A DNA stretch of 17,173 nt from a virus (lineage: Duplodnaviria > Heunggongvirae > Uroviricota > Caudoviricetes), in IMG/VR virus record IMGVR_UViG_2675903324_000013, one strand, 5' to 3'. The notes below the pieces were generated by a model, which did not search any database, was not told the DNA's origin, and saw only the letters and a program-made list of their open reading frames with translations. A program made the translations under genes and the position numbers. Positions 1,264 to 17,173 of the stretch are shown in pieces (within the stretch, counting starts at the first letter, position 1; every line of letters starts with the position of its first letter).

Positions 1264-1279
1264 GATAAGTGCACAGATA

Positions 1280-2293: not shown

Positions 2294-2297
2294 TTTT

Positions 2298-2520: not shown

Positions 2521-2544
2521 TACACACAACTAGCACAAAAAACA

Positions 2545-2925: not shown

Positions 2926-2978
2926 GGTACTGCCCTGTAAAGCAATGCGCCGTAGTACCTCACGCCACGGCGCTGATG
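2920..2978. repeat. Conserved 59-bp block, copy 2
   Basis: Same stem GCGCCG / CGGCGC (2947-2952 / 2968-2973); differs from copy 1 mainly in the loop and flanks. Confidence 0.6.
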
Positions 2979-2982
2979 GTGA

Positions 2983-3162
2983 TTATTCTGATTCTTTGGT
3001 CTTGCGGCGCTGGCGGCGTTTGATTTCGCCGCGCATGGCTGCGTTTATAAACTGCCCCGTGCTTTCACCTTCTTCTTTCACGTTCTCCATGCCTTCAATA
3101 ATTTCATGGGCAATACGTGCAGTTACAGATTGTGATTTTGCATTCTTTGGACCCGTTGCCAT
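2983..3162 (-). CDS. Putative ribbon-helix-helix (CopG/Arc/MetJ-like) DNA-binding protein; candidate switch repressor
   Basis: ATG at 3162 preceded by GAGGGG with 6-nt spacing. 59 aa with an N-terminal basic beta-strand (SQSVTARIA) followed by two helices (HEIIEGMENVKEEG / TGQFINAAMRGEI) and a basic tail. Operator-like boxes lie immediately upstream. The six-frame track start at 3201 lacks an RBS. Confidence 0.4.
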   Translation of the reverse strand: MATGPKNAKSQSVTARIAHEIIEGMENVKEEGESTGQFINAAMRGEIKRRQRRKTKESE

Positions 3163-3183
3163 GTTTAACCCCTCATGTTTTTG

Positions 3184-3264
3184 GTGTAAGACAATATACA
3201 CGAAAAAAAAATATTTTGAAGGGTTGACGTGTAAGACACCGTTATTTTACATTGTGTCTTACAC
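3184..3264. promoter_or_regulatory. Divergent promoter-operator region: three GTGTaagACAC boxes and back-to-back promoters
   Basis: Boxes at 3184-3193, 3229-3239 and inverted at 3254-3264. Leftward promoter: -35 TTCAAA / 16 bp / -10 TATATT (complement of 3193-3220). Rightward promoter: -35 TTGACG (3224-3229) with a weak -10 (TTACAT or TACATT) about 17-18 bp downstream. Confidence 0.45.
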
Positions 3265-3292
3265 CTTGTTAATGCAAGGTACAGAAAAGACG

Positions 3293-3325
3293 AAACCCCG
3301 CAGTGCTGGAACACATACGGGGCTT
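3293..3325 (-). terminator. Conserved stem-loop, copy 2: stem AAACCCCG / CGGGGCTT with 17-nt loop; T-rich tract on the minus strand
   Basis: Homologue of 2545-2578; lies in the 5' leader of the rightward operon and upstream of the leftward promoter. Confidence 0.4.
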
Positions 3326-3354
3326 CTAACCAACAACGTAAACTAGGAGCCGTT

Positions 3355-3552
3355 ATGGTTGCTGTAAATCATATACCACACCTTGTACACACACAAACTG
3401 CCTTTGTGTGGCGTTTTCTGGCACTGAGTGCCGGAGAATCTCAAATCATCCACGTCACCGCCTGGACGGAACGCGAAGCGCGTAGCCGTTGCCCGTCCGG
3501 TTGTGTTGCTGTATTTGCCGCCCGTATTCGTCAGGAGGTGCGCCATGATTAA
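3355..3552 (+). CDS. Hypothetical protein (65 aa), first gene of the rightward small-ORF operon
   Basis: AGGAG 6 nt upstream of the ATG; stop overlaps the next start (ATGATTAA); the first ~15 codons are conserved with a degenerate copy at 2609. Confidence 0.4.
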   Translation: MVAVNHIPHLVHTQTAFVWRFLALSAGESQIIHVTAWTEREARSRCPSGCVAVFAARIRQEVRHD

Positions 3553-3757
3553 TCTGTCACTTACTGACCTTAACCGCATTCAGTTTCGTGAGAAATTCAC
3601 AGGGCAGCTACTGGTCAATGTGGATAAAGGTCGCGTGGTGTGTAATTACTACTTACCAGATGAAGCAATTGTCGCCACAAGGGAATCATTACAGGAAATC
3701 ACAAAACGTGCCGGAATGATTAACACGAATATTCAGGGGATGCTTTATGCACAATAA
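3545..3757 (+). CDS. Hypothetical protein (70 aa)
   Basis: ATG at 3545 preceded by AGGAGG; the six-frame track ORF 3428..3757 has an upstream start without an RBS. Confidence 0.45.
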   Translation: MINLSLTDLNRIQFREKFTGQLLVNVDKGRVVCNYYLPDEAIVATRESLQEITKRAGMINTNIQGMLYAQ

Positions 3758-3986
3758 AACCACACCGGACGCAGCCGCCGAAGCCATCAAAACGCTGATG
3801 CACGCGCTGATTGATATTTCTGTTATCGCGGACAGGGCACATAAGCACGCCACCAGCGAAACAGAATATGCCGGGGCTTTCGTTCCTCACTCACTGGCTG
3901 TTATGCAATTTAGTGCTGATATGGCACTGAATGAGGCTAAAACCATCCTGATTACTGATTGTGAAAATGGGGGGGGTTATGCGTGA
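3747..3986 (+). CDS. Hypothetical protein (79 aa)
   Basis: ORF with GGGGA RBS; short overlap with its neighbours, consistent with an operon. Confidence 0.5.
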   Translation: MHNKTTPDAAAEAIKTLMHALIDISVIADRAHKHATSETEYAGAFVPHSLAVMQFSADMALNEAKTILITDCENGGGYA

Positions 3987-4212
3987 TGATCGTTTTAATT
4001 CCCTGAAACAAGAATTTTCCGGCGTTCCTGATGATGCGGCTGATGCGCTTTCGTCAATGCCAGAACTTATTAGAGCGGCTTTTTTCTTACTTTCCACGAA
4101 AGAATATAAATCAACGGGACTTGATGTACTGAATATCGCCGCCGATTATGCGGAATATGTGGCAGAGGCGCGTTACAGAAGAAAATTTCCTGAGGATGTA
4201 AGCCATGCGTGA
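3979..4212 (+). CDS. Hypothetical protein (about 77 aa; start uncertain, alternative GTG at 3961)
   Basis: ATGCGTGA overlap with the upstream stop; G-run RBS. Confidence 0.4.
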   Translation: MRDDRFNSLKQEFSGVPDDAADALSSMPELIRAAFFLLSTKEYKSTGLDVLNIAADYAEYVAEARYRRKFPEDVSHA

Positions 4213-4438
4213 TATTTATCTTGAAACAATAGACCGCGCATCACTTGCACTTTCTCACAGTGAAAACATGATGGAAATATTGCGGATGTGCCTTGAATCC
4301 TTTGGCGATAATGAACGTAATGCAAAAAAAACGCGGATTATTACATCATTAATAACGCTTCTTGAGCCTGTAATAAATGAGTTGCAGGAAATAGAGACAT
4401 TGCACGACAGATATAACGAACAGCACACCGGAGAATAA
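4205..4438 (+). CDS. Hypothetical protein (77 aa)
   Basis: Same ATGCGTGAT start context as the previous gene (coupled translation). Confidence 0.5.
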   Translation: MRDIYLETIDRASLALSHSENMMEILRMCLESFGDNERNAKKTRIITSLITLLEPVINELQEIETLHDRYNEQHTGE

Positions 4439-4443
4439 AAATA

Positions 4444-4743
4444 ATGAAACTTAAATATTCTGGCTTAACTGCCAGTGGCAACACTCACCCTAAATTTACG
4501 CGCGGTGATATTTACCGCGACCAGTACGGCGGCACGGTAATGATTAAGGGCGTGGCGGGACGGTGCGTAACTTACCGCCGTGAAGGTTACGAATATGATT
4601 GCGTGATGCCTGTTTATCAGTTCCGGCGTGATTTTTCTCTGGTACAGACCGCGCCGCATAACGTGCCCACCAGCAACGCCAGGGCACGGGCAAACATCCA
4701 GAAGCTGAAAACCATGATTAACGGATTCAGGGGCAAGAAATGA
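4444..4743 (+). CDS. Hypothetical protein (99 aa)
   Basis: GGAGAA RBS; stop overlaps the rep start (ATGA). Confidence 0.5.
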   Translation: MKLKYSGLTASGNTHPKFTRGDIYRDQYGGTVMIKGVAGRCVTYRREGYEYDCVMPVYQFRRDFSLVQTAPHNVPTSNARARANIQKLKTMINGFRGKK

Positions 4744-6137
4744 AAAGCGCACCGAACTTAAAAAAACAGCCTTACGACAAGATGACCGAAGTCATCATTT
4801 TTGCGGGTAGTGATGCGTGGGCACATGCGAAACAGTGGCAGGAACAGGACGGGCGACTGGCTGGCGATAATGTGCCTCCCATTGTGCTGGCTGATGATCA
4901 ACTGGATGAACTGGCAGACCTGAGAATCATCGACGAGGGGCGCTATTGTGTCCGGCTGTACAAGGCAGGCCACATCAGGCCATCAAATATTAATGCCATT
5001 GCGCACAAGCTGGCGGCGGCGGGCGTAACTGATGCGAATTATTACCCCGAAGGGATACACAGCCAGAAGCGGGAGAACTGGCGCGAATATCTGGAACGGG
5101 AGCGGGGGAAAAAGCCAGGGGAAGAACACCACCAGCGAAAAACCACGCTACCGATGAGCGTTGGATCTGCCGGATATGACACGCAATTAGATTACGTGGT
5201 AAAGGGGATTATTCCGGCATCGTCGCTATGCAGCATATACGGGGCAAGCGGTTCCTATAAATCATTCCTTGCGGGTTCGTGGGCGTGTCACGTTTCCACG
5301 GGCCGCCAGTGGGGAGGCCGCAGGGTGGCGCATGGCGCTGTTCTCTATGTGGTTGGTGAAGGCGGTATCGGCGTTCCGCGTCGTGTAAAAGCCTGGGAGG
5401 TTGTGCACGGTGAGCAGGTGAAAAATCTGTATCTGGTAAACCGTCCAGTTTTTCCGGCTGTCCCGCTTGATGTTGATGAACTGGTTATCGCTGCCCGTCA
5501 GGTGGAGCGGGAAACGGGTAAACCTGTACGCATGATTATTCTTGATACTCTGGCGCGTTGCTTTGGTGGCAATGATGAAAATGATTCCCGTGATATGGGG
5601 GCGTTTATCCGTGGGTGTGACGAGCTTAAACGGCGCACAGGGGCCACGGTGCTGGTGGTTCACCATTCCGGCAAGGATGAGACGAAAGGCGCGCGCGGTT
5701 CCAGTGCATTTCGTGCTTCGCTGGATGCTGAATACCGGATACGCAGGGAGGACGCAGGAAGCGAAGCGCTGGTTATCTCATGCACCAAAATGAAGGACGC
5801 GGAGGAACTCAAAGAGGCTGCCTATGATTTGCGGGTGGTGGAGCTTTTTACCGACGCTGACGGGGAGTTAATCACGTCGCTGGTGGTGGTGGATAAGCCG
5901 CGCCCTCCCGTTGAACTGGAGCGCATCGAGGAGGCAGGCAACAAGACGGAAAACCATACCGCACTATGGGGGTGCATCCGTTCACGCACACAGAACGGCG
6001 ACAAGTGCACGATCCCGCTGTTACGTGATGACATGAAACGGCTTGGGTATGACGTGAAAAATATGCGGCGATGGTTAGCCAAACTGGAAAAAGACGCCGT
6101 GATTTACATTGATGGTGATGATGTAGGACCACTGTAA
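4740..6137 (+). CDS. Replication protein: RepA-like / AAA_25-type RecA-fold ATPase with C-terminal presumed DNA-binding region
   Basis: P-loop-like motif GASGSYKS (non-canonical), Walker-B-like RMIILDTLAR, and LVVHHSGKDETKGARGSSAF typical of RepA/AAA_25 helicase-loader proteins; immediately followed by an iteron array. Confidence 0.65.
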   Translation: MKSAPNLKKQPYDKMTEVIIFAGSDAWAHAKQWQEQDGRLAGDNVPPIVLADDQLDELADLRIIDEGRYCVRLYKAGHIRPSNINAIAHKLAAAGVTDANYYPEGIHSQKRENWREYLERERGKKPGEEHHQRKTTLPMSVGSAGYDTQLDYVVKGIIPASSLCSIYGASGSYKSFLAGSWACHVSTGRQWGGRRVAHGAVLYVVGEGGIGVPRRVKAWEVVHGEQVKNLYLVNRPVFPAVPLDVDELVIAARQVERETGKPVRMIILDTLARCFGGNDENDSRDMGAFIRGCDELKRRTGATVLVVHHSGKDETKGARGSSAFRASLDAEYRIRREDAGSEALVISCTKMKDAEELKEAAYDLRVVELFTDADGELITSLVVVDKPRPPVELERIEEAGNKTENHTALWGCIRSRTQNGDKCTIPLLRDDMKRLGYDVKNMRRWLAKLEKDAVIYIDGDDVGPL

Positions 6138-6340
6138 AAAGTGAGTAGCAAAAGTGAGTAATGGTGAGGTTTTTACAAAATATTAACACGATTACTCACT
6201 TTCTCACCTGTATACATACTCAAAAGTGAGGAGTAAAAAAATGCTTATGAAACATGCACATATAAAACACGAAAATCTCAAGCGAGACGAAGTGAGACGC
6301 GTTAAAAAGTGAGGCGTAAAAGTGAGCGCGAGTGAGGAGA
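6137..6340. repeat. Iteron array, putative origin of replication: about 10 copies of AAAGTGAG(G/T) in both orientations
   Basis: GTGAG at 6141, 6154, 6164, 6226, 6292, 6309, 6322, 6332 and inverted CTCAC at 6195, 6203; spacings of 10 and 13 bp; AT-rich stretch in the middle; directly downstream of the Rep gene. Confidence 0.55.
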
Positions 6341-6348
6341 TAACCAAA

Positions 6349-6591
6349 ATGCGCAGAGACAGAACAGCGCCAAAATATAAAGCGTTAGACATGACAGAGC
6401 ACGCTTTAAAGGTGGCAATCAGAACGATAGACCGCCACGCGGGGGAAGGATACGCGAAGGAACATCCCGACCTGATAAGCGCATTCATGACCACAGCGGC
6501 GGCAAACTTTGCCACGCTGACAGAACGGGAGATTGCCGAAGCGGAACAGGTAACAACCATCAACGTTAAAACCGGAGAGGTGGAATCATGA
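6349..6591 (+). CDS. Hypothetical protein (80 aa)
   Basis: ATG at 6349 with GAGGAG 9 nt upstream; the track start (GTG 6322) lies inside the iterons. Confidence 0.45.
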   Translation: MRRDRTAPKYKALDMTEHALKVAIRTIDRHAGEGYAKEHPDLISAFMTTAAANFATLTEREIAEAEQVTTINVKTGEVES

Positions 6592-6902
6592 GCGAACCAA
6601 AATTTGGTGAAAAATTTTACAAGCACAACGGACGGATCACGATTCTGCAAATAAGCGCAGCTACACCAGGCTGGTGGGTTGAAACAGACGAAGGATCCTC
6701 ACCCGTGGCATCATGGGCGCTTTGTGTGCTTAGTTACCCTGACCGCGATGTGTATCAGGATATTCTGCCTGTGATATCCACTGACAAAGGCATGAAACCC
6801 GTAGACATCAAAAAAATGGGTTTTCAGTGCGTAATGCTCACTGAAAAAATGATGGAAGAGATGAAAAAGATGAAAAAGAACAACGCCGGATCGCTTCACT
6901 GA
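6588..6902 (+). CDS. Hypothetical protein (104 aa)
   Basis: ATGA overlap with the upstream gene; GGAGAGG RBS. Confidence 0.5.
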   Translation: MSEPKFGEKFYKHNGRITILQISAATPGWWVETDEGSSPVASWALCVLSYPDRDVYQDILPVISTDKGMKPVDIKKMGFQCVMLTEKMMEEMKKMKKNNAGSLH

Positions 6903-6911
6903 GGTGGCAAT

Positions 6912-7322
6912 ATGACAGCACAAATTGCAGCTTACGGGCGGCTGGTGGCTGACCCGCAGTTAAAGACCACCAGCAAGGGTACACAAATGACGATGGCGAG
7001 TATGGCGGTCCCCCTTCCGTGCAGCCAGGCAGATGACGGAACGGTGACGATGTGGTTATCCGTCCTGGCATTTGGCAGACAGGCCGAAGCACTGGCAAGG
7101 CACCGCAAAGGTGAACTCCTGACCGTGGCGGGTAACATGCAGATCAGCCAGTGGACCGGACAGAACGGGGAAACACGGCAGGGGTATCAGGTTATTGCAG
7201 ACAGCGTAATCAGTGCCCGCGCGGCACGTCCAGGCGGGAACAGACGCAAAACCACAGGCACACAGGGTAATCAGCCACCAGCGGGAGGCGATGACCCTTA
7301 CGGTGACGGTATTCCGTTCTGA
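6912..7322 (+). CDS. ssb: Single-stranded DNA-binding protein (OB-fold SSB with acidic C-terminal tail …DDPYGDGIPF)
   Basis: Pattern …GRL..DP.L…W..V..FG..AE…KGE…V.G…W…GE.R… parallels bacterial SSB; Gly-rich linker; terminal DGIPF resembling the canonical DDDIPF tail; GAGGTG RBS. Confidence 0.8.
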   Translation: MTAQIAAYGRLVADPQLKTTSKGTQMTMASMAVPLPCSQADDGTVTMWLSVLAFGRQAEALARHRKGELLTVAGNMQISQWTGQNGETRQGYQVIADSVISARAARPGGNRRKTTGTQGNQPPAGGDDPYGDGIPF

Positions 7323-7332
7323 GGGGGTGACG

Positions 7333-7569
7333 ATGGTACATGACCGCATAGCGGAGGAACTCGAGGCAAAAGGCTTTTACCGGAGGGCGTCGGCGCGATG
7401 GGGTGAAGTCATGCAACTGGTGGAGACAGACAAGGAACGGCATCAGGTTACGATGCGACGGCTGGAATGTTCCAGGAAGGCACAGAGGCCACCGGAGAAC
7501 TACGCAGACCTGAGAAATGCAGTAAATCGCACTTATGCAGACATGGGGCTGAGCAAATTAGCTGAGTAG
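7333..7569 (+). CDS. Small regulator-like protein (78 aa), possibly PerC-family
   Basis: GAGGGGG RBS; basic helical protein with the motif DRIAEELEAKGFYRRASARWGEVM, which I recall as PerC-like. Assignment is from memory, not searched. Confidence 0.4.
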   Translation: MVHDRIAEELEAKGFYRRASARWGEVMQLVETDKERHQVTMRRLECSRKAQRPPENYADLRNAVNRTYADMGLSKLAE

Positions 7570-7591
7570 GAATATCAGAACCACACCACGC

Positions 7592-7615
7592 AGCCGGAGC
7601 AATCCGGCTTTTTTT
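7592..7615 (+). terminator. Strong intrinsic terminator T1 (stem AGCCGGA / TCCGGCT, GCAA tetraloop, U7)
   Basis: Read directly; follows the stop at 7569. Confidence 0.7.
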
Positions 7616-7710
7616 GCGTCATTTGAAATGGTATGGCGCACTACTGGCTTTTCGTCACGGTCCGGCATAGTTACTATCTGAAACAAACAGACACAACAGA
7701 GGAAAAAACA

Positions 7711-7935
7711 ATGCCGACGAAATTTGATGAGATATTAAAACAGCGTGATAAATACCATGCTGACAACATGGAGACGATGAACATCACTGATTACCGAGCA
7801 TTCCTGGAAACGGGGGCGCTGATTGAAAAGGATCATCATGGTTTTGTTCGTTGCGCGCTATCCGGTGAAATGCTGGCGGTAAATCCTGAACAGACAGATG
7901 CATTGATAGAATTTCTGAAAGGGATCAGGGACTGA
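7711..7935 (+). CDS. Hypothetical protein (74 aa) in a terminator-bracketed cassette (moron-like)
   Basis: ATG 7711 with GAGGA RBS; possible own promoter (-10 TACTAT at 7672-7677); flanked by two copies of the same terminator. Confidence 0.5.
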   Translation: MPTKFDEILKQRDKYHADNMETMNITDYRAFLETGALIEKDHHGFVRCALSGEMLAVNPEQTDALIEFLKGIRD

Positions 7936-7945
7936 GCACCCATAC

Positions 7946-7967
7946 AGCCGGAGCAATCCGGCTTTTT
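7946..7967 (+). terminator. Intrinsic terminator T2, 23 bp identical to T1 (cagccggagcaatccggcttttt)
   Basis: Read directly. Confidence 0.7.
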
Positions 7968-7986
7968 GTTATTTTTTGTAAATTAT

Positions 7987-8016
7987 TTGTTCGTGGTTGT
8001 TCCACGTTGTTCACTG
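7987..8016. repeat. Three tandem 10-bp repeats TTGTTCgtgg / TTGTTCcacg / TTGTTCactg overlapping a candidate late promoter
   Basis: 10-bp phasing; the third unit is a possible -35 (TTGTTC), with TATTTT at 8029-8034 after a 16-bp spacer; the 15-mer ttgttccacgttgtt recurs at 15574-15588. Confidence 0.45.
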
Positions 8017-8071
8017 AGCGGATCGGCATATTTTACCCGAACTGAATCATGATTATTCTCGCCCGTGGTGC

Positions 8072-8226
8072 CAGGACGCTGGGGCCACTTTCCCGCCTGT
8101 TAATGTGCTCGCCAATATTCATTACCAGGCGGGAAAACGATCGGTGCGATTGCTGATTCCCTTATGAAAAACGGTTGAGTTTTTGCCGCGTCCTGGAGTT
8201 CCTTACTTAACCCCAGGACTTTTTTT
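8072..8226 (+). promoter_or_regulatory. Structured leader of the head-gene operon with alternative pairings and a sequestered Shine-Dalgarno
   Basis: 8188-8196 (GCGTCCTGG) can pair either with 8072-8080 (CCAGGACGC, 9 bp) or with 8213-8219 (CCAGGAC, 7 bp). The latter hairpin is followed by T7 and contains the AGGA SD of the capsid gene (8215-8218). A further 9-bp stem with 26-nt loop lies at 8092-8135. Confidence 0.4.
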
Positions 8227-9384
8227 ATGCCGAGAATAATCGAATTACGCCAGCAGAAAACCGCCATTAAAAATCAGATGCGCGACATGCTGGAGAACGC
8301 GGAAAAAGAAAACCGCAGTCTTAACGATGCTGAGGGCGCAAAATTTGACGAATTACGCGCTAAAGCTGAATCCCTCGATAAAGACATTTCCCGCCTTGAA
8401 GCCATTGCAGACGAAGAGCGCAGCAAGCCAGGTAAAAGCAGCCAGACCACTGACCCCGCAGAACTACGCAGCTACATTCTGACAGGTGAAACCCGCGCAT
8501 TAAGTACAGGCGTTCCCGCTGATGGTGGTTATACCGTTATCCCCGAACTGAACACCGAAATCATGCGAATGCTGGCGGATGAGTCCACCATGCGCCGCAT
8601 CTGTACCGTGAAAAAAATCAGCAGCAACGAGTTTAAGCAGCTTGTTTCCGCTGGCGGTGCGACCGTTAACCACGGTGAAGAGGGTAAGGCACGCGAACAG
8701 ACCAGCACCCCGCAGATTAACGAGGTGAGCATTAAGCTGTATCCGGTCTATGCGTACCCGCGCACCACACAGGAAATCGTGGATTTTTCCGATGTGGACA
8801 TCCTTTCATGGCTGACGGGTGAGATTGGCGACACCTTCACGGAAACCGAAGAAAGCGATCTGGTTGTGGGCGACGGTGACAAAAAAGCAAAAGGTTTTTT
8901 ATCCGTACCCCGTGCAGAGAAGAACGACAAAGAGCGTGATTTTGGTACGTTGCAGGTAATTAAACCTTCCGAATCTCTGGCGTGGACATCTGCGGACCCG
9001 CTGATCGACCTGAAATTTGCATTACGTAAAAAATACCGCAAAAACGCGGTCTGGGTGGTTAACTCCACGACGGCGGCAAAACTCCAGAAGGTGAAGAACG
9101 CGAACGGTGATTACATCTGGCGTGACCGTTTACAGGCGGGTGATCCTGATACGTTGCTGGGCCTTCCGGTCGAATATCTGGAGTTTATGCCTGATAACGT
9201 TATTGCCCTGGGTGACTTCAAACGCGGTTACTACATTGTTGATCACGAAACAGGTGTTCGCACCAGACCGGACAACCTCACAGAGCCGGGCTTCATCAAA
9301 ATTTTCACGCAGAAATATTTAGGCGGTGGCGTGGTGGATTCGAACGCGATCAAGATTCTGGAACTGCCACAGGACGACGATTAA
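8227..9384 (+). CDS. Major capsid protein, HK97 fold, with N-terminal coiled-coil delta domain
   Basis: 385 aa; coiled-coil N-terminus (IELRQQKTAIKNQMRDMLENAEKE…) and a C-terminal region paralleling HK97 gp5 (…VWVVNSTTAAKL…GDYIW…LLGLPVEYLEFMP…GDFKRGYYIVDHETG…). Confidence 0.9.
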   Translation: MPRIIELRQQKTAIKNQMRDMLENAEKENRSLNDAEGAKFDELRAKAESLDKDISRLEAIADEERSKPGKSSQTTDPAELRSYILTGETRALSTGVPADGGYTVIPELNTEIMRMLADESTMRRICTVKKISSNEFKQLVSAGGATVNHGEEGKAREQTSTPQINEVSIKLYPVYAYPRTTQEIVDFSDVDILSWLTGEIGDTFTETEESDLVVGDGDKKAKGFLSVPRAEKNDKERDFGTLQVIKPSESLAWTSADPLIDLKFALRKKYRKNAVWVVNSTTAAKLQKVKNANGDYIWRDRLQAGDPDTLLGLPVEYLEFMPDNVIALGDFKRGYYIVDHETGVRTRPDNLTEPGFIKIFTQKYLGGGVVDSNAIKILELPQDDD

Positions 9385-9394
9385 CAGCATACAG

Positions 9395-9414
9395 AAGGGG
9401 CTTAAAAGCCCCTT
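9395..9414 (+). terminator. Hairpin after the capsid gene (stem AAGGGGC / GCCCCTT, loop TTTTAA), possible attenuating terminator
   Basis: Read directly; followed by T-rich sequence. A partial terminator after a highly expressed capsid gene is common in phages. Confidence 0.35.
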
Positions 9415-9423
9415 TAGTGTTTT

Positions 9424-9996
9424 ATGGGTGAAAAAATTATGAAGAGTATGGAAATCCGGTCATCGGAAATCACCACCAGCGGCAGCAACACGCTTACAGG
9501 CTACGTTGTTCGCTGGGATAAGCTTTCAGAACTGTTATGGGGTGAGTTTTACGAAAAATTCCAGCGGGGGGCGTTTACTGAATGGCTTGCGGCGGGTAAT
9601 GACGTTCGCGGCCTGTATGAGCATGACCACAGTATGTTACTGGGGCGCACCCGTTCCGGCACGCTGAAACTGGAAGAGGATGAAACAGGGTTACGCTTTG
9701 AACTGACCCCACCGGATACCAGTACAGGGCGCGACGTTATCGAACTGGTTAAACGTGGTGATATATCCGGCATGAGCTTTGGCTTTCGCTCCCGTAAGGA
9801 TGTATGGGATACCACAACAGATCCATGCGTGCGCACCGTGCTGGTGGCGGAACTGTACGAAATTACCGTTACATCGGTACCGGCTTACCCCGATTCCGGC
9901 GTGGAGCTGGCCCGCCGTTCCCTGTATGAGCAGCACCCCGAAAAAATGCCGCGTGCGGATAATCGCCGCTGGTGGGTGGATTTAGCGGGGGTGTGA
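9424..9996 (+). CDS. Prohead maturation protease, HK97 family (S78/U35)
   Basis: 190 aa with …LTGYVVRWD…FQRGAF…LYEHD…LLGRT…L.LEEDE.GL.FE…ISGMSFGF…VPAYP…; exact start among ATG 9424, 9439 or 9448 is uncertain. Confidence 0.85.
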   Translation: MGEKIMKSMEIRSSEITTSGSNTLTGYVVRWDKLSELLWGEFYEKFQRGAFTEWLAAGNDVRGLYEHDHSMLLGRTRSGTLKLEEDETGLRFELTPPDTSTGRDVIELVKRGDISGMSFGFRSRKDVWDTTTDPCVRTVLVAELYEITVTSVPAYPDSGVELARRSLYEQHPEKMPRADNRRWWVDLAGV

Positions 9997-9997
9997 T

Positions 9998-11209
9998 ATG
10001 TGGCCTTTCAGAAGAAAAAAAGAGCAGCGCAGCATGACGCTTGATGAATTTATGGCGCTGGCTGGCACATCGAACACGGGGGCGGGTGAGTACGTATCAT
10101 CGGGGACAGCGGAATCACTGCCTGCCGTCATGAACGCCGTTACGGTCATCTCTGAGGCGGTGGCTACCATGCCGTGTTACCTGTACCTGGTACGCAATGA
10201 GAAGGGGAAGGAGGCCCGCGAGTGGCTTGATTCTCATCCGGTCGATCACATCCTCAACGAGCGCCCGAACGCATGGCAAACCCCCTACCAGTTTAAGCGA
10301 ATGATGATCCGCCACTGCCTGTTAAACGGTAATGCTTATGCGGTTATTCAGTGGGGGCGTGATGGTTTTCCGGCGGCTTTACATCCTTACCCGCCGCAGT
10401 CGGTGAACGTGGAGCAGACAGGCGAACACAACTGGCGCTATTGCATCACTGACGCCTACACCGGAAACACCCACAACTATTTACCGTGGGAAGTACTTCA
10501 CCTTCGTTACTCCACGGATGACGGCTTTATGGGGCGCTCACCTGTAACCATCTGCCGCGAATCGCTGGGGCTTGGGCTGGCCCAACAACGCCACGGCGCG
10601 AGCGTGATGCGTGATGGCATGATGGCGGCAGGGGTTATCACGTCAGGCGAATGGCTGGACGGCGTGAAGGGCAAACAGGCATTAGCCGCACTGGAACGCT
10701 ACAAAGGGGCCAGAAACGCCGGAAAAACGCCCATCCTTGAAGGGGGGATGAGCTATCAGCAGCTGGGCATGAGTAATCAGGATGCTGAATGGCTGGCCTC
10801 CCGTCGCTTTACCATTGAAGACATCGCCCGAATGTTCAACGTCTCGCCGATTTTTTTGCAGGAATACAGCAACAGCACCTACAGCAATTTCAGCGAGGCA
10901 AGCCGCGCATTTCTCACCATGACGATGCGCCCGTGGCTGGCGAACTTTGAGCAGCAGATAAAAAACGCCCTGCTGGTGGCCTCGCCTGTACCTGGTATCC
11001 GGTATCAGGTGGAGTTTGACAGCGCGGACCTGTTACGGGCCACACCTGGCGAACGCTTTGCCACCTATGAGCGCGGCATCAAATCCGGCGTTATGTGCCC
11101 GAACGAAGCCCGCGAACGTGAAGGACTGTCACCGCGTGATGGTGGTGATGAGTTCAGTCAGGCATGGAAACAGGAAGTAAAAATCAGCGAGGGAGAAAAA
11201 CCGGAATGA
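9998..11209 (+). CDS. Portal protein, HK97 family
   Basis: 403 aa; GGGGG RBS; motifs …LLNGNAYAVIQW…, …GRSP…, …ARNAGKTPILEGG…, …IEDIARMFNVSPIFL…, …NEAREREGLSPRDGGDE. Confidence 0.9.
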   Translation: MWPFRRKKEQRSMTLDEFMALAGTSNTGAGEYVSSGTAESLPAVMNAVTVISEAVATMPCYLYLVRNEKGKEAREWLDSHPVDHILNERPNAWQTPYQFKRMMIRHCLLNGNAYAVIQWGRDGFPAALHPYPPQSVNVEQTGEHNWRYCITDAYTGNTHNYLPWEVLHLRYSTDDGFMGRSPVTICRESLGLGLAQQRHGASVMRDGMMAAGVITSGEWLDGVKGKQALAALERYKGARNAGKTPILEGGMSYQQLGMSNQDAEWLASRRFTIEDIARMFNVSPIFLQEYSNSTYSNFSEASRAFLTMTMRPWLANFEQQIKNALLVASPVPGIRYQVEFDSADLLRATPGERFATYERGIKSGVMCPNEAREREGLSPRDGGDEFSQAWKQEVKISEGEKPE

Positions 11210-11544
11210 ACATAGGGCGACTGCGTGACAGGATAACGATTCAGACCCTGAAACAGACCAGAGCCATGACGGGCGAAATACTCGAAACGTGGGAGGACGG
11301 TCACACACTCTGGGCAAGCGTGAACATGATCAGCAGCAAGGAGGCCATTTCATCGGGCGCAGAGCTGGCGATTGGTACCGTAAGGATCTGGATACGGTAC
11401 CGGAAGGACATCAACGCCACCAGCCGGATAAAGGTCAGTACGGGGCCGCTGGCGGGGCGTGTACTGAATATCATCGGGCAGCCGTTGCCGGATGTCGCCA
11501 GGACACGCCTTGAAATTCTTTGTCGTGAGGGCGCGGAAAAATGA
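11206..11544 (+). CDS. Head-tail joining / head closure protein (Phage_H_T_join-like)
   Basis: ATGA overlap with the portal stop; pattern …GRLRDRITIQ…GE..E.W.D…WASV…IRYR…RI…LEILCRE. Confidence 0.7.
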   Translation: MNIGRLRDRITIQTLKQTRAMTGEILETWEDGHTLWASVNMISSKEAISSGAELAIGTVRIWIRYRKDINATSRIKVSTGPLAGRVLNIIGQPLPDVARTRLEILCREGAEK

Positions 11545-11837
11545 CAGAAGAACTTATCACCCTGGAAGAAGTGAAACTCCATTGCCGTATCGATGGAGAC
11601 GAGGAAGACCAGTTAATCAGCGGATACATTGCCGCATCGCTTGAGGCGTGCCAGATACACATAGGCAGGCGCTTTGATGACGGGCTGGAGTTCACGCCAG
11701 CCATAAAGATTGGCTGCATGATGTTTATCGCTCACCTGTATGAGAATCGCCAGATTGTCGCGGATAACGCAAAAACACGCGTACCCATGACGATTGGCGC
11801 ACTCTGGACGGCTTACCGTGATGTGGGGGTGTACTGA
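11541..11837 (+). CDS. Head-tail connector protein, gp6-like
   Basis: …LEEVKLHCRIDGDEEDQLISGYIAAS…AHLYENRQ…, typical of gp6-like connector proteins; GAGGG RBS. Confidence 0.7.
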   Translation: MTEELITLEEVKLHCRIDGDEEDQLISGYIAASLEACQIHIGRRFDDGLEFTPAIKIGCMMFIAHLYENRQIVADNAKTRVPMTIGALWTAYRDVGVY

Positions 11838-12277
11838 TGCCGTGGCAACCATTAAGACGATGCACAGAACCAGGCTGTAACAGGCGCGTTAAATCCGGCA
11901 AGTGTGAGGAGCACAGGCGGGCGGCATGGCGTGCAGAGGATGCCAGACGAGGACACCGCCGCGCGCGTGGATATTCCAGACAGTGGGACAAATACCGCGC
12001 CATGTATCTGAGTAAAAACCCGTTATGCGTGCGATGCCTTGAGAAGGGGATATATACGCCCGCCGTGGTGGTGGATCACATTATCCCGATTAATGGCGGT
12101 GATGATGTTCTCTTCTGGCCCGAATGGAACCATCAACCATTGTGCCAGGCGTGTCATAACCAGAAAACGAAATGGCTTGATCCGGCAACAAAAAGCAAGC
12201 GTGCCGCAGGTGGATTTCGTGAAGAGGAAGAACGGGCCGCTAACCGCAATAACTGGATGTATGACGCTGATGAATGA
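11837..12277 (+). CDS. HNH endonuclease (packaging-associated)
   Basis: Cys-rich N-terminus and …CVRC…VVDHIIPINGG…NHQPLCQACHNQKT…; GGGGG RBS; located just upstream of terS as in HNH-dependent cos packaging systems. Confidence 0.85.
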   Translation: MPWQPLRRCTEPGCNRRVKSGKCEEHRRAAWRAEDARRGHRRARGYSRQWDKYRAMYLSKNPLCVRCLEKGIYTPAVVVDHIIPINGGDDVLFWPEWNHQPLCQACHNQKTKWLDPATKSKRAAGGFREEEERAANRNNWMYDADE

Positions 12278-12454
12278 GCGGGAACAAAACCGCCTTATCC
12301 GTGGACTTATAAGGCAGCGTGACGCATGGAAGACACAGGAAACAGGGCATAAAGATAAAGCGTCAGGACGCGCAGAACGCATCACAGCGAAGCGATTAAC
12401 CGACCGTGACCGCGAGGTTATGGAATGTTTCCGCAATCGCTGATGAGGCTGTAT

Positions 12455-12540
12455 GACGGGGTGGGGGGCGTTTTCAGGACAAACCCGACCCCGCCGGGCA
12501 CCGAACGCCTCCTCAAATTTTTATGCACGGGAATTTTTTG
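12455..12540. other. Candidate cos / packaging recognition region between HNH and terS
   Basis: GC-rich blocks GACGGGGTGGGGGGCG and CCCGACCCCGCCGGGC followed by an AT-rich tract; position inferred from known HNH-TerS-cos arrangements. Confidence 0.25.
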
Positions 12541-12566
12541 AAAAATAATCTGGCGAAAAAATAAGC

Positions 12567-12923
12567 ATGTCAAGACCACCGAAAGCCCCCGCCTACCTGG
12601 ATGATATCGCCGTGAAGCAGTGGCGGGAAAAATCTAGGCAGCTTGCGGAACGGGGAGACCTGACCCCCGCCGACTGGAGCAATCTGGAACTGTATTGTGT
12701 CAACTACTCCATTTACCGGAAAGCCGTTGCAGACCTTGCGGCGCGCGGGTTCAGCATTGTTAACAGTCAGGGCGGTGAGAGCAGAAACCCCGCATTAAGC
12801 GCAAAATCCGACGCTGAAAGAGTGATGATAAAAATGGCCTCTTTGCTCGGTTTTGACCCGATAAGCCGCCGTAAAAATCCACCGGAAACAGAAGAAGAGG
12901 ACGAGCTTGACCGCCTGGAATAA
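12567..12923 (+). CDS. Terminase small subunit (P27-family-like)
   Basis: 118 aa, …NLELYCVNYSIYRKAVADL…NP…LGFDPISRR…, acidic C-terminus; immediately precedes TerL. Confidence 0.75.
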   Translation: MSRPPKAPAYLDDIAVKQWREKSRQLAERGDLTPADWSNLELYCVNYSIYRKAVADLAARGFSIVNSQGGESRNPALSAKSDAERVMIKMASLLGFDPISRRKNPPETEEEDELDRLE

Positions 12924-14568
12924 GTACGCAGAAGACGTAAAAACGGGCAAAATTCCGGCCTGTAAACGGCTGAAACAGGCCGTTAAACGGTACTTTTCGG
13001 ACCTTGAAAGCCCCCTTTACACGTTCGATCGTGAGGTTGTGGAGCGGTTTATTGCCTTTTCCAGGGTGTGCCCGCACGTAAAAGGGCCGATGCGTGGCAG
13101 ATCCATTGAGCTGGAGCCGTGGCAGCAGTTCGCCTTTGCGTGCATCCTCGGCTTTAAGGTTAAGGCCACCGGACGGCGCAAATACACGAGCGCCTTTATC
13201 GAAGTGCCGCGCAAAAATGCGAAATCCACGACCGCCGCGATTCTGGCTAACTGGTTTCTGATTATGGAGAACGGGCAGCAGGATATTTACACCGCAGCGG
13301 TGAGCCGTGACCAGGCGCGGATCGTTTTTGATGATGCGCGTCAGATGTGCCTTTTATCCCGACCGTTACGCAGGCGGGTGAATATTCAGGCCCACAAGGT
13401 GATGCACCCGAAAAGCAACAGCCTGTTAAAGCCGCTGGCAGCAAAAGCGGCAACCATCGAGGGCACAAACCCAAGCCTTTCCATCGTGGACGAATACCAC
13501 CTACACCCCGATAACGGCGTTTATTCCGCGCTTGAGCTGGGGATGGGCGCACGTCCCGAAGGGCTGTTATTTGCCATTACCACATCGGGCAGTAACGTCG
13601 TTTCAGCCTGTAAGCAGCACTATGATTATTGCTGCCAGATCCTGGACGGCGAAGAGGTCAACGATTCAATTTTTGTGCTGATTTACGAGCTGGACGACGA
13701 AAACGAGGTTGATGATCCGGCGATGTGGATAAAGGCTAACCCTAACATCGATGTTTCCGTGGATCGTGAAAAACTGGCCTCAACCATCCAGAAAGCGCGG
13801 GGTATTCCGTCGCAATGGGTGGAGATGATGACAAAGCGATTTAATATCTGGTGCCAGGGGGCTACCCCGTGGATGGGTAACGGCGCATGGGCTGAGTGTG
13901 CCGGAACGTTCACGGAGGAAGATTTACACGGGCAGGAGTGTTACGCGGGGCTGGACTTATCATCAACCAGCGATATTTCCAGCGTGTGCTATGCCTTTCC
14001 GGTCGGTAAAAATATCATGCTGGTTTCCCGTCATTATCTGCCGGAGTTCCAGCTACAGAACCCCGCCAATAAAAACCGCGCTGTCTATCGCCAGTGGGCT
14101 AAAGCGGGCTGGATACGCACAACGCCAGGTGACTGCATTGATTACGACCGGATCAGAGATGACATCATGCAGGATGCGGAGAAATTTAATATCAGGCTGG
14201 TGGGCTTTGATACGTGGAACGCCACGCATCTCAGGACGCAATTACAGGGGGCTGGTTTTGAGGTGGAGCCGTTCCCGCAAACCTACCTCAGATTCAGTCC
14301 GGCGGCGAAATCGTTCGAAGTTTTTGTTAACCGCAGGGTGATTGTGCATCGTGGCGATCCGGTGTTGTCCTGGTCGATGAGTAACGTCGTGATGCAGAGT
14401 GACGCGAACGCCAATATCAAGCCGAACAAGAAAAAATCACCGAACAAGATAGACCCGAGCGTAGCGGCGCTGATGGCGTTTGGTACATTCCAGGCAGAGC
14501 ATGAGGATTTTGCTTTTGATATAAGCGACAGCCACCGCCAGAAACTGGAAGAATTTAGCGGGGTGTAA
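12907..14568 (+). CDS. Terminase large subunit (ATPase-nuclease)
   Basis: 553 aa; apparent TTG start at 12907 overlapping the terS end by 17 nt, with AGAGGA upstream; N-terminal pattern …W..YAEDV.TGKI…, then ATPase and nuclease-like regions. Confidence 0.9.
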   Translation: MTAWNKYAEDVKTGKIPACKRLKQAVKRYFSDLESPLYTFDREVVERFIAFSRVCPHVKGPMRGRSIELEPWQQFAFACILGFKVKATGRRKYTSAFIEVPRKNAKSTTAAILANWFLIMENGQQDIYTAAVSRDQARIVFDDARQMCLLSRPLRRRVNIQAHKVMHPKSNSLLKPLAAKAATIEGTNPSLSIVDEYHLHPDNGVYSALELGMGARPEGLLFAITTSGSNVVSACKQHYDYCCQILDGEEVNDSIFVLIYELDDENEVDDPAMWIKANPNIDVSVDREKLASTIQKARGIPSQWVEMMTKRFNIWCQGATPWMGNGAWAECAGTFTEEDLHGQECYAGLDLSSTSDISSVCYAFPVGKNIMLVSRHYLPEFQLQNPANKNRAVYRQWAKAGWIRTTPGDCIDYDRIRDDIMQDAEKFNIRLVGFDTWNATHLRTQLQGAGFEVEPFPQTYLRFSPAAKSFEVFVNRRVIVHRGDPVLSWSMSNVVMQSDANANIKPNKKKSPNKIDPSVAALMAFGTFQAEHEDFAFDISDSHRQKLEEFSGV

Positions 14569-14581
14569 TGAGGTCAGCAGC

Positions 14582-14863
14582 ATGACAGAAGCCGAAATAC
14601 TGCGATTAATCCGCCGCGTCTCTGGAATCAGCCAGCAGGCTGACGAACAGACCACGCAGCCGGACAGCGTGACAGCCGAAAATTATGCGCGTGTTGTTGC
14701 TGAGGTGATGCGCCGTGATGGTATCCAGCTTAATGATGCGGATATGCGCGACATACGGATCCGCGTTCTGGAAATGCTGGCCTACAATCGCCGCGTTGAA
14801 CTGTATCGGGAGAAGGAGAAAATCACGTACCACTGGAAGAAGCCGGAGCGGTTACGGCGGTAA
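14582..14863 (+). CDS. Hypothetical protein (93 aa), terminal gene of the island
   Basis: GAGG RBS 8 nt upstream; the stop overlaps the first copy of the CGGCGGTAACT repeat. Confidence 0.5.
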   Translation: MTEAEILRLIRRVSGISQQADEQTTQPDSVTAENYARVVAEVMRRDGIQLNDADMRDIRIRVLEMLAYNRRVELYREKEKITYHWKKPERLRR

Positions 14864-15135
14864 CTTGTTGATTAAAAGGCGGCTCAATTCTGAGCTGGGT
14901 AGCTGACGGCGGTAACTGTTTGATATTCCCGATAACGCAAAATTGCGCTGACTACATCCCTCACATCTGAGGACTGTTAACCAGCAGGCCGGAATATATT
15001 CACAAACTACGAAATTTTCGTAGTTTAATTACTCGCCAGTTTATCGTTAACTAGTTGATATTTTCGGAAACCTCAATTTGAGGAAGTCGGCGCGGTAACT
15101 GTTTTATATTCCCGATAGCGCAAAAATGCGCGGTC
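14854..15135. repeat. Direct repeats R1 (14854-14873, partial), R2 (14905-14952) and R3 (15089-15135) sharing CGG(C)GGTAACTGTTTkATATTCCCGATArCGCAAAAwTGCGC; candidate att copies
   Basis: R2 and R3 match over about 40 bp with 2-3 differences; each carries the near-palindrome CGCAAAATTGCG; palindromes CTACGAAATTTTCGTAG (15007-15023) and CCTCAATTTGAGG (15071-15083) lie between them. Confidence 0.5.
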
Positions 15136-15160
15136 GGGCAGAATGAGCACCACCTCAATC

Positions 15161-15195
15161 GTGACGGAGAGTGACAACCAGTGACACACCGTGAC
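15161..15195. repeat. Four GTGAC pentamers in exact 10-bp phasing (gtgacggaga gtgacaacca gtgacacacc gtgacaaaaa)
   Basis: Read directly; similar GTGA-containing 10-bp phased array near int at 1280-1319. Confidence 0.55.
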
Positions 15196-15248
15196 AAAAA
15201 GACGGTTTAACCGTTCATTAAAAATCGACGTGATTTTGTGCTTTCCGG

Positions 15249-15272
15249 ATGACGTGGCCAACGTCATTTTTT
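15249..15272 (+). terminator. Intrinsic terminator-like hairpin (stem ATGACGT / ACGTCAT, loop GGCCA, then T6)
   Basis: Read directly; no annotated plus-strand gene ends here. Confidence 0.4.
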
Positions 15273-15712
15273 AGCGAAAAATTCTGATTAAGGTCACTGG
15301 CTGAATGGTCATAATGACCACGCAGACCATCGAGGCAACCATAGCGATCATCGTTACGGTTGGAGCTTTTCCGCCATTGGTGGAAAAGGTGCACATCTGG
15401 ATCATCATTACGGTGATCAAGGGTATGTAAAACCCACCAGCCTGATTAAAGGTTAACCGGAAAAAAAATCCGGTAGCCCCGTTATGGGGATCCCCATATC
15501 GACATTAACGCCCCTCATGAATTGGTGCGCTTCCCCCTGGAAAGATTACCCGCCTGTATATTTCTTGTGTCTATTTGTTCCACGTTGTTTCATACAGTGC
15601 ACCGAACGGTGTAGTTAATGGTGTAGTCAATTTGCGATTTTTGGCACTTTTTCAATGATAATTGTTTAATTAAATCAATGGCTTGACCTGGTATAGTGAT
15701 AAAAGGACATAT

Positions 15713-17173
15713 TTATTCATCTTTCGGCGCAGAATGCTGGCGACCAAAAATCACCTCCATCCGCGCACCGCCCAGCATGCTCTCTCCGGCGACGATTTTA
15801 CCCTCATATTGCTCGGTGATTTCGCGGGCTACCGCCAGCCCTACACCTTGCCCAGGGCGTAAAGTATCAACCCGTTGACCACGGTCGAAAATGACCTCTC
15901 GCTTGCTTAATGGAATACCGGGGCCATCATCCTCGACCACAATATAGAGATGCTCGTCGGTTTGCCTTGCAGAAATTTCGACAAACTCGAGGCAATATTT
16001 ACAGGCATTATCCAGCACGTTGCCCATCACCTCGACAAAATCGTTCTGCTCACCGACAAAGCTGATCTCTGGCGAAATATCGAGAGAGATATTGACCCCT
16101 TTGCGTTGATACACTTTGTTCAGCGCTGAGGTGAGATTGTCCAGCAGTGGGGCGACCGGATGCAGCTCGCGGCTGAGCAATGTCCCGCCGCGCATACTGG
16201 CACGATGCAGGTAGTAGCCAATTTGCTGTGAAATGCGGCTGATTTGCTCCAGCATTACCGGCTCAGCATCACTGACGCTCATCTTTTCACTACGCAGAGA
16301 ACGCAGCGTACTTTGCAGCACCGCCAGTGGCGTTTTCAGACTATGGGTCAGGTCGGTGAGCGTCGTACGGTATTTGTCGTAACGTTCGCGTTCACTTTTT
16401 AACAATCGGTTCAGGTTTCGTACCAGACTGGTCAGTTCTCGCGTTGTGGCTGGATTGAGCAATTCGCGGTTATGTTCTTCCAGTTCGCGGACTTCTTTTG
16501 CCAGGGCTTCGATGGGGCGTAAACTCCACCAGGCGGCGACCCACAGCAGCGGGATCACTAACAGCAGATTGGCTGAGAGCACATAGATAAACCAGCTCCA
16601 GACCATATAGGAACTTTTTAGCTCCACCGGAATGGTATCCACCACCACAATGGTTAATTTTGGCATCCGCGATGTTGCCGGGTAGACGTTTACTGCCACC
16701 GAGTGGGTCATCTCCGCGTCGTCATCATCTTCCCGCACTTCCTGCAACTGTTGCTGTATCGAATGATCTCCACTCAGCAAGAGGCTGGTATCGTTAACAT
16801 CCGCTTCAATTTCATGAAAACCATTCGATTTCAGCCAGTCAGGCTGGATCATCTTCATCAGCCAGGGCACGTCACGTTGCGCCCATAAAAGCTGCCCGTT
16901 CTCATCATAAATTAGCGTCATGGTGGGGCTTTGCTTGTCGATATTTTCGGGTAACTCGACATGCAACTTATTGTTTTCCCACTTCGCAAGGGTATAGAAC
17001 AGATTGCTCTCGCCACGTAACAGCCGAAACGTAGTTTTATCGAAACTGACGCTATAACCGATCAGCGCGACCATTCCGTAGGCAAGCGAAAGCACCAGTA
17101 CTACCGCAGCCGTTGCCAACAGAAAACGTACCCGCAGTGAGAGCGGGAAAAAAAGACGCAGTAATTTTTTCAT
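15713..17173 (-). CDS. phoQ: Sensor histidine kinase PhoQ (PhoPQ two-component system), full length
   Basis: 486-aa product whose sequence I recognise as Escherichia coli PhoQ (N-terminus [77 protein letters not shown]…, acidic patch [11 protein letters not shown]-box and ATP-binding motifs); start codon at the last bases of the window. Confidence 0.97.

Follow-up and report, generated by a model that had tools for sequence, protein, structure and literature searches.

The non-coding right arm of a putative capsid-forming phage satellite inserted beside phoQ of Escherichia coli

What is the repeat-rich DNA that separates the last gene of a viral island from the phoQ gene of Escherichia coli? 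The window analyzed here is the whole stretch of 17,173 nucleotides of the IMG/VR virus record IMGVR_UViG_2675903324_000013, and the question concerns its segment 14864-15714. An initial annotation, made from the letters alone, had described this segment as a junction dense in repeats, palindromes and small open reading frames (ORFs). We consider it probable (about 0.7) that the segment is the non-coding right arm of a capsid-forming phage-inducible chromosomal island (cf-PICI), a satellite integrated just downstream of phoQ, and that this arm has a four-layer anatomy. The first layer would be attR, with the core GGACATATTT and a P arm of about 200 bp that is specific for the integrase and carries tandem arm sites and a predicted site for integration host factor (IHF). 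The second would be a block of about 95 bp (F3), which is common to related satellites whatever their integrase and has a Chi octamer at its heart. As third layer we propose phased GTGAC repeats and, after them, the intrinsic terminator of the late operon. The fourth would consist of short modules, in which a small palindrome comes 8-10 nt after an IHF-consensus site and which would derive from a site overlapping the stop codon of the last gene.

The attachment site and the integrase-specific arm

The gene order of the island was taken from its ORF layout and from the RefSeq annotation of E. coli UC4224 (locus L001), which is 99.9% identical to the window across 14500-16200. Here, we found genes for an integrase, an AlpA-like helix-turn-helix protein, a RepA-family helicase, SSB and PerC, then for an HK97-type capsid, a protease, a portal, two connectors, HNH, a P27-family small terminase subunit (TerS) and the large terminase subunit (TerL), and lastly a hypothetical gene of 93 amino acids. 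Tail genes were not found in the RefSeq annotation of UC4224. An integrase, replication functions, HK97 capsid, protease, portal, connectors, HNH and TerS/TerL in a tail-less element of about 15-17 kb are the hallmarks of a cf-PICI, and EcCIEDL933 is a capsid-forming PICI with matching layout (10.1101/2022.09.08.507074). These data identify the window, as far as gene content can tell, as a cf-PICI satellite inserted between roxA and phoQ, which are spaced by 75 bp in a K-12-like genome (L002). Despite the near-identity of the right ends, the UC4224 island is about 1.3 kb longer than that of the window between int and terL, and by this difference the left and right parts of such satellites have different histories.

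When we compared the segment with 5426 complete E. coli genomes, all of them matched the phoQ end of the query and the island-free ones matched only from 15705/15708 rightwards. Because of this boundary, 14864-15704 is island DNA beside the junction of island and chromosome, as its description as an island junction had implied. The right end of a satellite adjoins phoQ in at least 514 of the 5426 genomes. Parts of 14864-15704 were detected in 1359 genomes and at least 80% of the stretch in just 35. No phage record matched this region; among the records of the plasmid collection six did, two of which are 1.4 and 4.9 Mb long.

Alignment of attL (L001), attB (L002) and attR (window) defined the attachment site. 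The initial annotation had expected a duplicated att core to emerge from alignment with island-free strains and the left flank; such a core was indeed found, and it is GGACATATTT, not the 40-bp repeats. It can be seen that this core is present at both junctions (L001 2046-2055 and window 15705-15714) and that the empty site of the K-12-like genome (L002 2501-2510) reads GGGCATATTT, which is nearly identical. The difference could be a host polymorphism or a base carried in by the island. Since the phoQ stop codon (15713-15715) overlaps the core, PhoQ is left intact by the insertion and only the 3' flank of phoQ is exchanged. Exact att coordinates are thereby available for a common E. coli insertion. 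Reconstruction of attP gave TGATAAAA-GGACATA-TTTTATCA, in which a 7-bp overlap lies between two inverted 8-bp core-type sites, and the junction of the excised circle would read ...TGATAAAAGGACATATTTTATCAATTAGTG.... Such a layout is standard for the core of tyrosine recombinase sites.

The tandem 12-bp repeat seen in the initial annotation is real (GGTGTAGTTAAT / GGTGTAGTCAAT). The 72-bp stretch 15561-15632 around it recurs on the int side of the island at 78% identity, and the tandem GGTGTAGTYAAT is found at -97/-85 and at +136/+148 relative to the core, which places one pair on each arm; the int-side pair lies about 25 bp upstream of the int start. The motifs TTGTTyCA and CACGTTGT likewise occur on both arms. 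Among related loci, the block 15502-15704 is present where the integrase is at least 89% identical and absent where it is 25-69% identical. A locus with an integrase of 41% identity (L018) has a tandem repeat of its own, TGTGTATTGCAA, with two copies at the right end and three just upstream of int. Because the repeat co-varies with the integrase, which is the strongest evidence, we assign the 12-bp tandem as arm-type site of the integrase, to which the enzyme would bind. The right-hand 200 bp of the segment thus read as an ordinary attP arm. At its outer edge lies F3, the most conserved non-coding block of the segment, which is kept regardless of the integrase type and stays 144-160 bp from the arm repeats even where these repeats differ. 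The coordinates of all features are given in Table 1.

Table 1. Sequence features of the right arm and of its flanks (window coordinates unless a locus is named)
Feature	Coordinates	Strand	Description
93-aa gene (gene93)	14582-14863	+	93 aa, phrog_1561, hypothetical, last island gene
Module R1	14861-14895	-	IHF consensus AATCAACAAGTTA (14861-14873) overlapping TAA; palindrome GCTCAATTCTGAGC (14882-14895)
Module R2	14906-14948	-	Degenerate gene 3' end; IHF consensus TATCAAACAGTTA (14913-14925); palindrome CGCAAAATTGCG (14936-14947)
23-bp perfect palindrome	15004-15026	.	AAACTACGAAA-T-TTTCGTAGTTT; fold z = -5.6
Module D	15044-15083	-	IHF consensus TATCAACTAGTTA (15048-15060); palindrome CCTCAATTTGAGG (15071-15083)
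Module R3	15092-15131	-	93% copy of R2; IHF-like site with 1 mismatch (15096-15108); palindrome GCGCAAAAATGCGC (15118-15131)
Phased GTGAC repeats	15161-15200	+	Four repeats
Predicted intrinsic terminator	15249-15272	+	ATGACGT-GGCCA-ACGTCAT + T run; 7-9 bp stem, GGCCA loop, six T
Palindrome (block F1)	15306-15320	.	TGGTCATAATGACCA; recurs 1-3 times in relatives
10-bp hairpin (block F2)	15366-15388	+	z = -3.5; inside both small ORFs
Block F3	15420-15515	.	Chi octamer, A8 tract flanked by CCGG, palindrome CGTTATGGGGATCCCCATATCG
Chi octamer at F3 centre	15434-15441	-	CCACCAGC; exact
Integrase-specific P arm of attP	15502-15704	+	Sequence comparison, co-variation with integrase
P-arm element	15576-15593		TTGTTCCACGTTGTTTCA
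Tandem arm-type repeats	15608-15631		GGTGTAGTYAAT x2; P arm
IHF consensus in P arm	15673-15685		Between arm sites and core; sequence match only
Core-type site	15697-15704		TGATAAAA
attR crossover	15705-15719	.	Overlap GGACATA (15705-15711) + host core-type site TTTATTCA
Repeats of locus L018	~12990-13015 and 1400-1465 (L018)		TGTGTATTGCAA; same architecture, other sequence

Cassettes, repeat modules and a predicted terminator between the last gene and the arm

The left border of the segment is formed by the 93-aa gene. Its product belongs to a narrow family (37 representatives at 50% identity, all named "hypothetical") and has a highly conserved C-terminus, KKPERLRR. The structural model is helical with a predicted local distance difference test score (pLDDT) of 71.5, and a fold search of this model against the PDB gave no match at E < 0.8. 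With this protein alone, a scan of contigs yielded two loci, only one of which was a close relative (Shigella flexneri chromosome). The cf-PICI paper describes a "hypothetical gene 1792", mutation of which lowers transfer; this gene could not be matched to a particular ORF.

We found that the 93-aa gene together with non-coding DNA of the right-arm type closes satellites of three packaging layouts, namely cf-PICI (TerS/TerL/HNH), classical PICI (capsid-like, decoration and TerS-like proteins) and a ClpP-capsid fusion. These satellites sit at phoQ, tqsA, yejO or yifB. The gene and the right arm thus represent one backbone module common to three packaging layouts.

Between the 93-aa gene and F3 the distance varies from 190 to about 730 bp, and in one locus up to 984 bp separate the gene from a second F3 copy. 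A presence/absence matrix and the sequences themselves revealed two alternative forms. The Type I cassette carries the repeat modules and the 15366-15388 hairpin, and the Type II cassette carries five phased GTGAC repeats, the terminator and the TGGTCATAATGACCA palindrome. In the island of the window and in a few others, Type I is followed by Type II in tandem, and the 40-bp R2/R3 direct repeat at the joints is the consequence, R3 marking the joint between the two cassettes. From these alignments, the repeats appear to have been multiplied by shuffling between two alternative 3' cassettes common to many E. coli satellites. No link was found between cassette type and packaging module.

The 40-bp direct repeats themselves were confirmed. 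R2 (14909-14948) and R3 (15092-15131) are 93% identical and begin 183 bp from each other; the copy R1 (about 14853-14872) is shorter and includes the stop of the 93-aa gene, and a fourth, weaker relative (65%) lies at 15044-15083. R1 consists of the last KKPERLRR codons and the TAA stop, and R2 adds a degenerate copy of the preceding 17 nt. By this comparison, the CGGCGGTAAC repeats are island-internal copies of the last codons of the gene and its stop, and the conserved KKPERLRR-stop would be the source of the CGGCGGTAA repeat. The motif shared by the copies, TAACNNNNTTGATW, is the IHF consensus read on the opposite strand. Five perfect matches to this consensus are present in the window (0.73 expected), four of them within the right-arm region. 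The sites of R1, R2 and D are each followed 8-10 nt on by a palindrome with 5-bp arms, the sequence of which varies. In 33 distinct relatives we counted 49 IHF-consensus sites, all in one orientation, at a density of 3.4/kb vs. 0.27/kb across all loci collected, and in 19 of these 33 the stop codon of the 93-aa gene shares bases with such a site. On this evidence the "40-bp repeats" and two of the "palindromes" described initially appear to be one family of IHF-site/palindrome modules.

The three palindromes of the initial annotation were recovered. The one reported at 15007-15023 extends over 15004-15026 with perfect arms of 11 bp, is present in part of the Type I cassettes and looks like an operator for a dimeric protein. 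The palindrome at 15071-15083 (CCTCAATTTGAGG) is perfect but energetically unremarkable (z = -0.3), and that at 15483-15498 (TATGGGGATCCCCATA) is perfect. Other elements had escaped this annotation: the IHF-consensus sites, the palindrome of block F1, the hairpin of block F2, the Chi octamer of F3 and the four GTGAC repeats (15161-15195), which have an exact 10-bp spacing (0.03 expected by chance). In relatives, a series of five GTGAC repeats begins about 20 bp beyond the stop of the 93-aa gene. Half-sites related to GTGAC lie beside the terminator (GGTCAC, 15293-15298; TGGTCATAATGACCA, 15306-15320). In locus L008, the F1 variants AATGATCATTATGATTA (about 2180-2200 and about 2310-2330) resemble a Fur box, to which the copy of the window fits less well.

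Do these modules work together? The modules, the phased GTGAC repeats and F3 might be functional cis-elements of one satellite-wide system, which could be an extended enhancer of recombination or condensation, or a regulatory hub bound by IHF and a satellite protein, for example the 93-aa product or AlpA. The 12-fold enrichment and strict co-orientation of the IHF consensus, palindromes that hold their position while their sequence changes, the exact GTGAC phasing, the constant spacing of F3 from the arm repeats and a 93-aa gene that is always adjacent are in line with such a system. However, the cassettes replace each other and the distance between the gene and F3 is variable, which argues against a fixed architecture. 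Moreover, the 93-aa protein has no recognisable DNA-binding fold in a model of moderate quality, and co-orientation is equally expected from common descent of a duplicated unit. We consider a unified system of this kind unlikely.

The mosaic pattern also fits another scenario, in which the stretch is a currently empty slot for accessory genes. Homology arms for exchange of cargo would then be provided by F3 and by the 3' end of the 93-aa gene, the repeats would be leftovers of such exchanges, and the Chi octamer at the right-hand flank would stimulate RecBCD recombination there. In fact, two relatives do have cargo between the conserved blocks. Inspection of their right arms (L007 2796-3188 and L009 2482-2817) located a Q-family antiterminator gene in one of them and a 111-aa gene, on the minus strand, in the other. 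However, in 50 of the 52 loci with both flanks the gap measures just 190-640 bp, and no annotated gene lies in any of the gaps, which makes cargo the exception. We regard the cargo slot as unlikely.

Returning to the four-layer anatomy, the plus-strand terminator proposed in the initial annotation was confirmed by its folding energy (-13.7 kcal/mol, z = -2.3) and by the T run that follows. The minus strand yields just -9.2 kcal/mol and has no T run. The structure thus combines, as intrinsic terminators do, a stem-loop with a U run on the transcribed strand. A scan for consensus terminators reported the homologous site of locus L016, not that of the window itself. The terminator is conserved at 92-100% and in relatives with the minimal (Type II) arm it lies about 110 bp after the 93-aa gene. 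In the window, it is found 386 bp after the stop of this gene, because the Type I cassette was inserted. Apart from this displacement, it differs from known intrinsic terminators by an A/T-rich stem (3 G-C of 7 pairs), and termination is a prediction from its structure. Gram-negative PICIs are transcribed rightward as one unit (PMC6092414). Most likely, judged from its position, the terminator ends the rightward late operon, and it would prevent transcription of this operon from entering phoQ in the antisense direction or, once the circle has been excised, from entering int.

This position also bears on the earlier idea of a terminator that lacks an obvious gene and ends a small RNA, since the minimal relatives place it behind the last gene of the operon. 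We assign a very low probability to a small RNA with its end at 15272 and to a toxin-antitoxin system of type I on the two small ORFs. Such a system could draw on the conserved plus-strand terminator, on a plus-strand ORF that is open in many variants and on a weak promoter-like site of the minus strand (15431-15404); a 3'-untranslated-region-derived RNA may also be processed from the operon transcript. However, there was no match to Rfam in 14000-16200 at E values up to 1 and nothing resembling a promoter on the plus strand of 14500-15900, a range that includes the DNA ahead of the terminator. The minus-strand site was not found in relatives and was discarded as promoter. Esr41, a small RNA of O157, was rejected as candidate, since it lies in O island 43 (OI-43).

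Both hydrophobic ORFs exist as initially described (41 aa on the plus strand at 15305-15430; 45 aa on the minus strand at 15271-15408 when started at ATG, 49 aa when started at TTG 15420). Related loci carry frameshifted or truncated versions of them or have lost them by deletion. Of 19 distinct variant forms, just 3 (4 of 53 loci) retain the complete minus-strand ORF. The commonest variant has another N-terminus in the plus-strand ORF, and a 7-nt indel shifts the C-terminus of this ORF. The whole small-ORF block is absent from Type II elements, and the substitutions in aligned variants are mostly non-synonymous (judged by eye, not computed). Searches against Pfam, PHROGs and NCBIfam, including their toxin families, gave nothing significant, the best hit being a bacteriocin model with E = 0.07, below its cut-off. 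Neither a toxin family nor an antisense RNA was thus recognised, and type I toxin-antitoxin was dropped. These data suggest that the small ORFs are not genes; of the two options initially left for them, the compositional artefact is the better reading. As for RNA structure, the F2 hairpin is 92.7% paired across 11 variants, and one pair changes in a compensatory way (C-G / A-U / G-U); in one relative, an unrelated hairpin occupies the F2 position. For the F2 stretch there is modest support for structure and none for a peptide.

The first interpretation of the CGGCGGTAACTGTT copies, as att cores that successive integrations had left behind as a stack of old junctions, can be set aside almost completely: the copies are direct repeats near the island end, but the motif is absent from attL and attB, which refutes this reading, the real core is the 10 bp at 15705-15714 with classical core-type inverted repeats, and the repeats, which open with the conserved final codons of the 93-aa gene and its stop, occur in satellites at all four att sites (phoQ, tqsA, yejO, yifB). 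A false lead is thereby removed, and neither stacked att scars nor a toxin gene have to be assumed at this locus.

Chi octamers in block F3 and across the satellites

The octamer at the centre of F3 is an exact copy of Chi (5'-GCTGGTGG-3'; GCTAGTGG is an example of a single-base variant), and it is kept in a variant with changed flank. Its minus-strand orientation faces the left end with the terminase genes, where the position of cos is presumed. Two loci carry two F3 copies, each with a Chi octamer and in the same orientation: L032 (5646 and 6177, about 530 bp apart) and L036 (about 546-594 and 295-336, about 260 bp apart). These double copies could be tandem satellite ends or an internal duplication.

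This octamer is one of many. In the island (1-15704) we counted 18 exact Chi octamers, with 0.61 expected by shuffling. No Chi is present in the phoQ part of the window and there are three in the 20.5 kb of flanking chromosome of L001. The density of the island (one per 0.87 kb) is about five times that of the host, E. coli K-12 having one per 4.6 kb and the Chi-rich phage LLS one per 1.86 kb (PMC12315714). For 49 satellite-derived loci of IMG/VR the value is 0.86 Chi/kb, and related satellite loci average 0.86-0.93/kb. A frequency above both chance and host background would point to selection. For comparison of the right arms, 80 loci were fetched via the 93-aa protein, not via Chi, and these loci comprise 37 distinct right arms. 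Within 1 kb of non-coding DNA, Chi was present in 33 of them, with 38 minus-strand and 9 plus-strand octamers that fall into at least six sequence contexts.

The meaning of this orientation depends on the location of cos. The right-arm region was rejected as location, since a lambda-type cosN is absent from the window and classical PICIs have cos upstream of rpp. The non-coding stretch 12443-12567, G-rich and then A/T-rich, lies between a small ORF after HNH and terS, and by analogy with HK97, where cos has a like position, it is the likely cos of the cf-PICI. On the basis of the literature, which places ori 3' of the replication gene (PMC6092414), a replication origin in the right arm was rejected as well. 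In 53 classical PICIs with lambda-type cosN, the polarity could be read on both sides of the cut. To the left (up to 1.5 kb), the nearest Chi octamers all face that end (46 plus, 0 minus). To the right, 15 outward-facing plus-strand octamers come first (0-1 kb), and the first end-facing ones on this side are minus-strand octamers at 1-2 kb (35 minus vs. 6 plus). This polarity switch at cosN of classical PICIs supports the idea that Chi is turned towards RecBCD arriving from a DNA end.

Neither a recombinase nor Gam is annotated in the island (RefSeq annotation of L001). Chi-rich lambdoid phages that lack a recombination module rely on host RecBCD (PMC3784561, PMC12315714). Being Chi-rich and without annotated recombinase or Gam, the island fits this class. 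We tentatively propose, at odds clearly below even, that E. coli PICIs (classical and cf) are a Chi-saturated class and that the F3 octamer acts as a guard post, which switches RecBCD to RecA loading before attP and int are reached. RecBCD would enter at the left cos end of linear DNA that has been injected or cut by terminase; the F3 Chi is oriented for an enzyme arriving from this terminase-gene end of packaged DNA and would halt degradation before it reaches attP and int. Loss and replacement would be most frequent in the DNA between this end and Chi, which would account for its mosaic structure with shuffled cassettes. The same design for end protection or end repair could also include the phased GTGAC repeats and the co-oriented IHF-site/palindrome modules. 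If Chi matters when a satellite enters a new cell, RecBCD would help to determine the host range of satellites, and the establishment of identical cf-PICIs in different species would be partly testable by point mutants. We regard the Chi observation as a lead worth an experiment.

Several points weigh against these readings of the arm and of its Chi octamer. The relatives compared are closely related and locus counts are not independent events. Int and IHF binding, termination and Chi function are all predictions from sequence. Type II elements do without the IHF-site/palindrome modules, which are therefore dispensable or replaceable and may be neutral repeats. Conservation of F3 extends well past the octamer, so that Chi alone does not explain the block; a hairpin of its A tract was rejected as RNA structure, since CCAGG variants break the pairing without compensation. 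When the right-arm octamers are counted by sequence context, about 3 minus stand against 3-4 plus and the bias is gone. The Chi octamers of the cf-PICI in the window are almost balanced overall (10 plus, 8 minus), and the conserved F3 Chi lies about 2.9 kb from the presumed cos. Finally, the papers on Gram-negative PICIs and cf-PICIs (10.1101/2022.09.08.507074; PMC6092414) do not describe the right arm, its modules or the Chi content.

Comparison with known elements

With Gram-negative PICIs and cf-PICIs (EcCICFT073, EcCIEDL933) the island shares gene content and order from int to TerL, the lack of tail genes and the rightward direction of all genes (10.1101/2022.09.08.507074; PMC6092414). As a difference, the sites which these papers locate are others, ori 3' of the replication gene and cos upstream of rpp. 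New with respect to this literature would be the shared right-arm module, the IHF-site/palindrome units and the extreme Chi content.

The att region resembles that of lambda and P4 in its 7-bp overlap within inverted 8-bp core-type sites, in tandem arm-type repeats that are present on both arms and unlike the core, and in an IHF consensus between arm and core. P4 Int regulates its own gene, and in the island, as in P4, the arm repeats adjoin the int start and the arm co-varies with the integrase. In contrast to lambda, for which no counterpart is described, the arm has at its outer edge the integrase-independent F3 block at constant distance.

The modules recall BIME-1 (bacterial interspersed mosaic element 1), also known as RIP (repetitive IHF-binding palindromic element) or RIB (reiterative ihf BIME), in which an IHF site is combined with palindromic units at the ends of E. 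coli operons. Common to both are a repeated extragenic IHF consensus and palindromes after the last gene of an operon. However, the palindromes of the satellite are short (12-14 bp), variable and single, one per IHF site and not two flanking it, and they are unlike the repetitive extragenic palindromic (REP) consensus of about 35 bp. In addition, the modules occur in satellites only, and island-free genomes lack them. We did not assign them to this family although the IHF consensus is present.

The closest parallel for the Chi content is the class of Chi-rich phages around LLS. As in these phages, no recombinase or Gam is annotated, Chi is far more frequent than expected from chance and from the host average, and the octamers nearest to the cos ends tend to face them, as judged from the classical PICIs. 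In contrast, the element compared here is a satellite and not a phage, and satellites are not mentioned in the two papers on these phages (PMC12315714, PMC3784561). The orientation bias of the cf-PICI is weak (10:8), and one of its octamers lies in a conserved non-coding block beside attP and not within a gene. Taken together, these comparisons suggest no new kind of system in the right arm: its anatomy is mostly ordinary, and its Chi richness is the most interesting lead.

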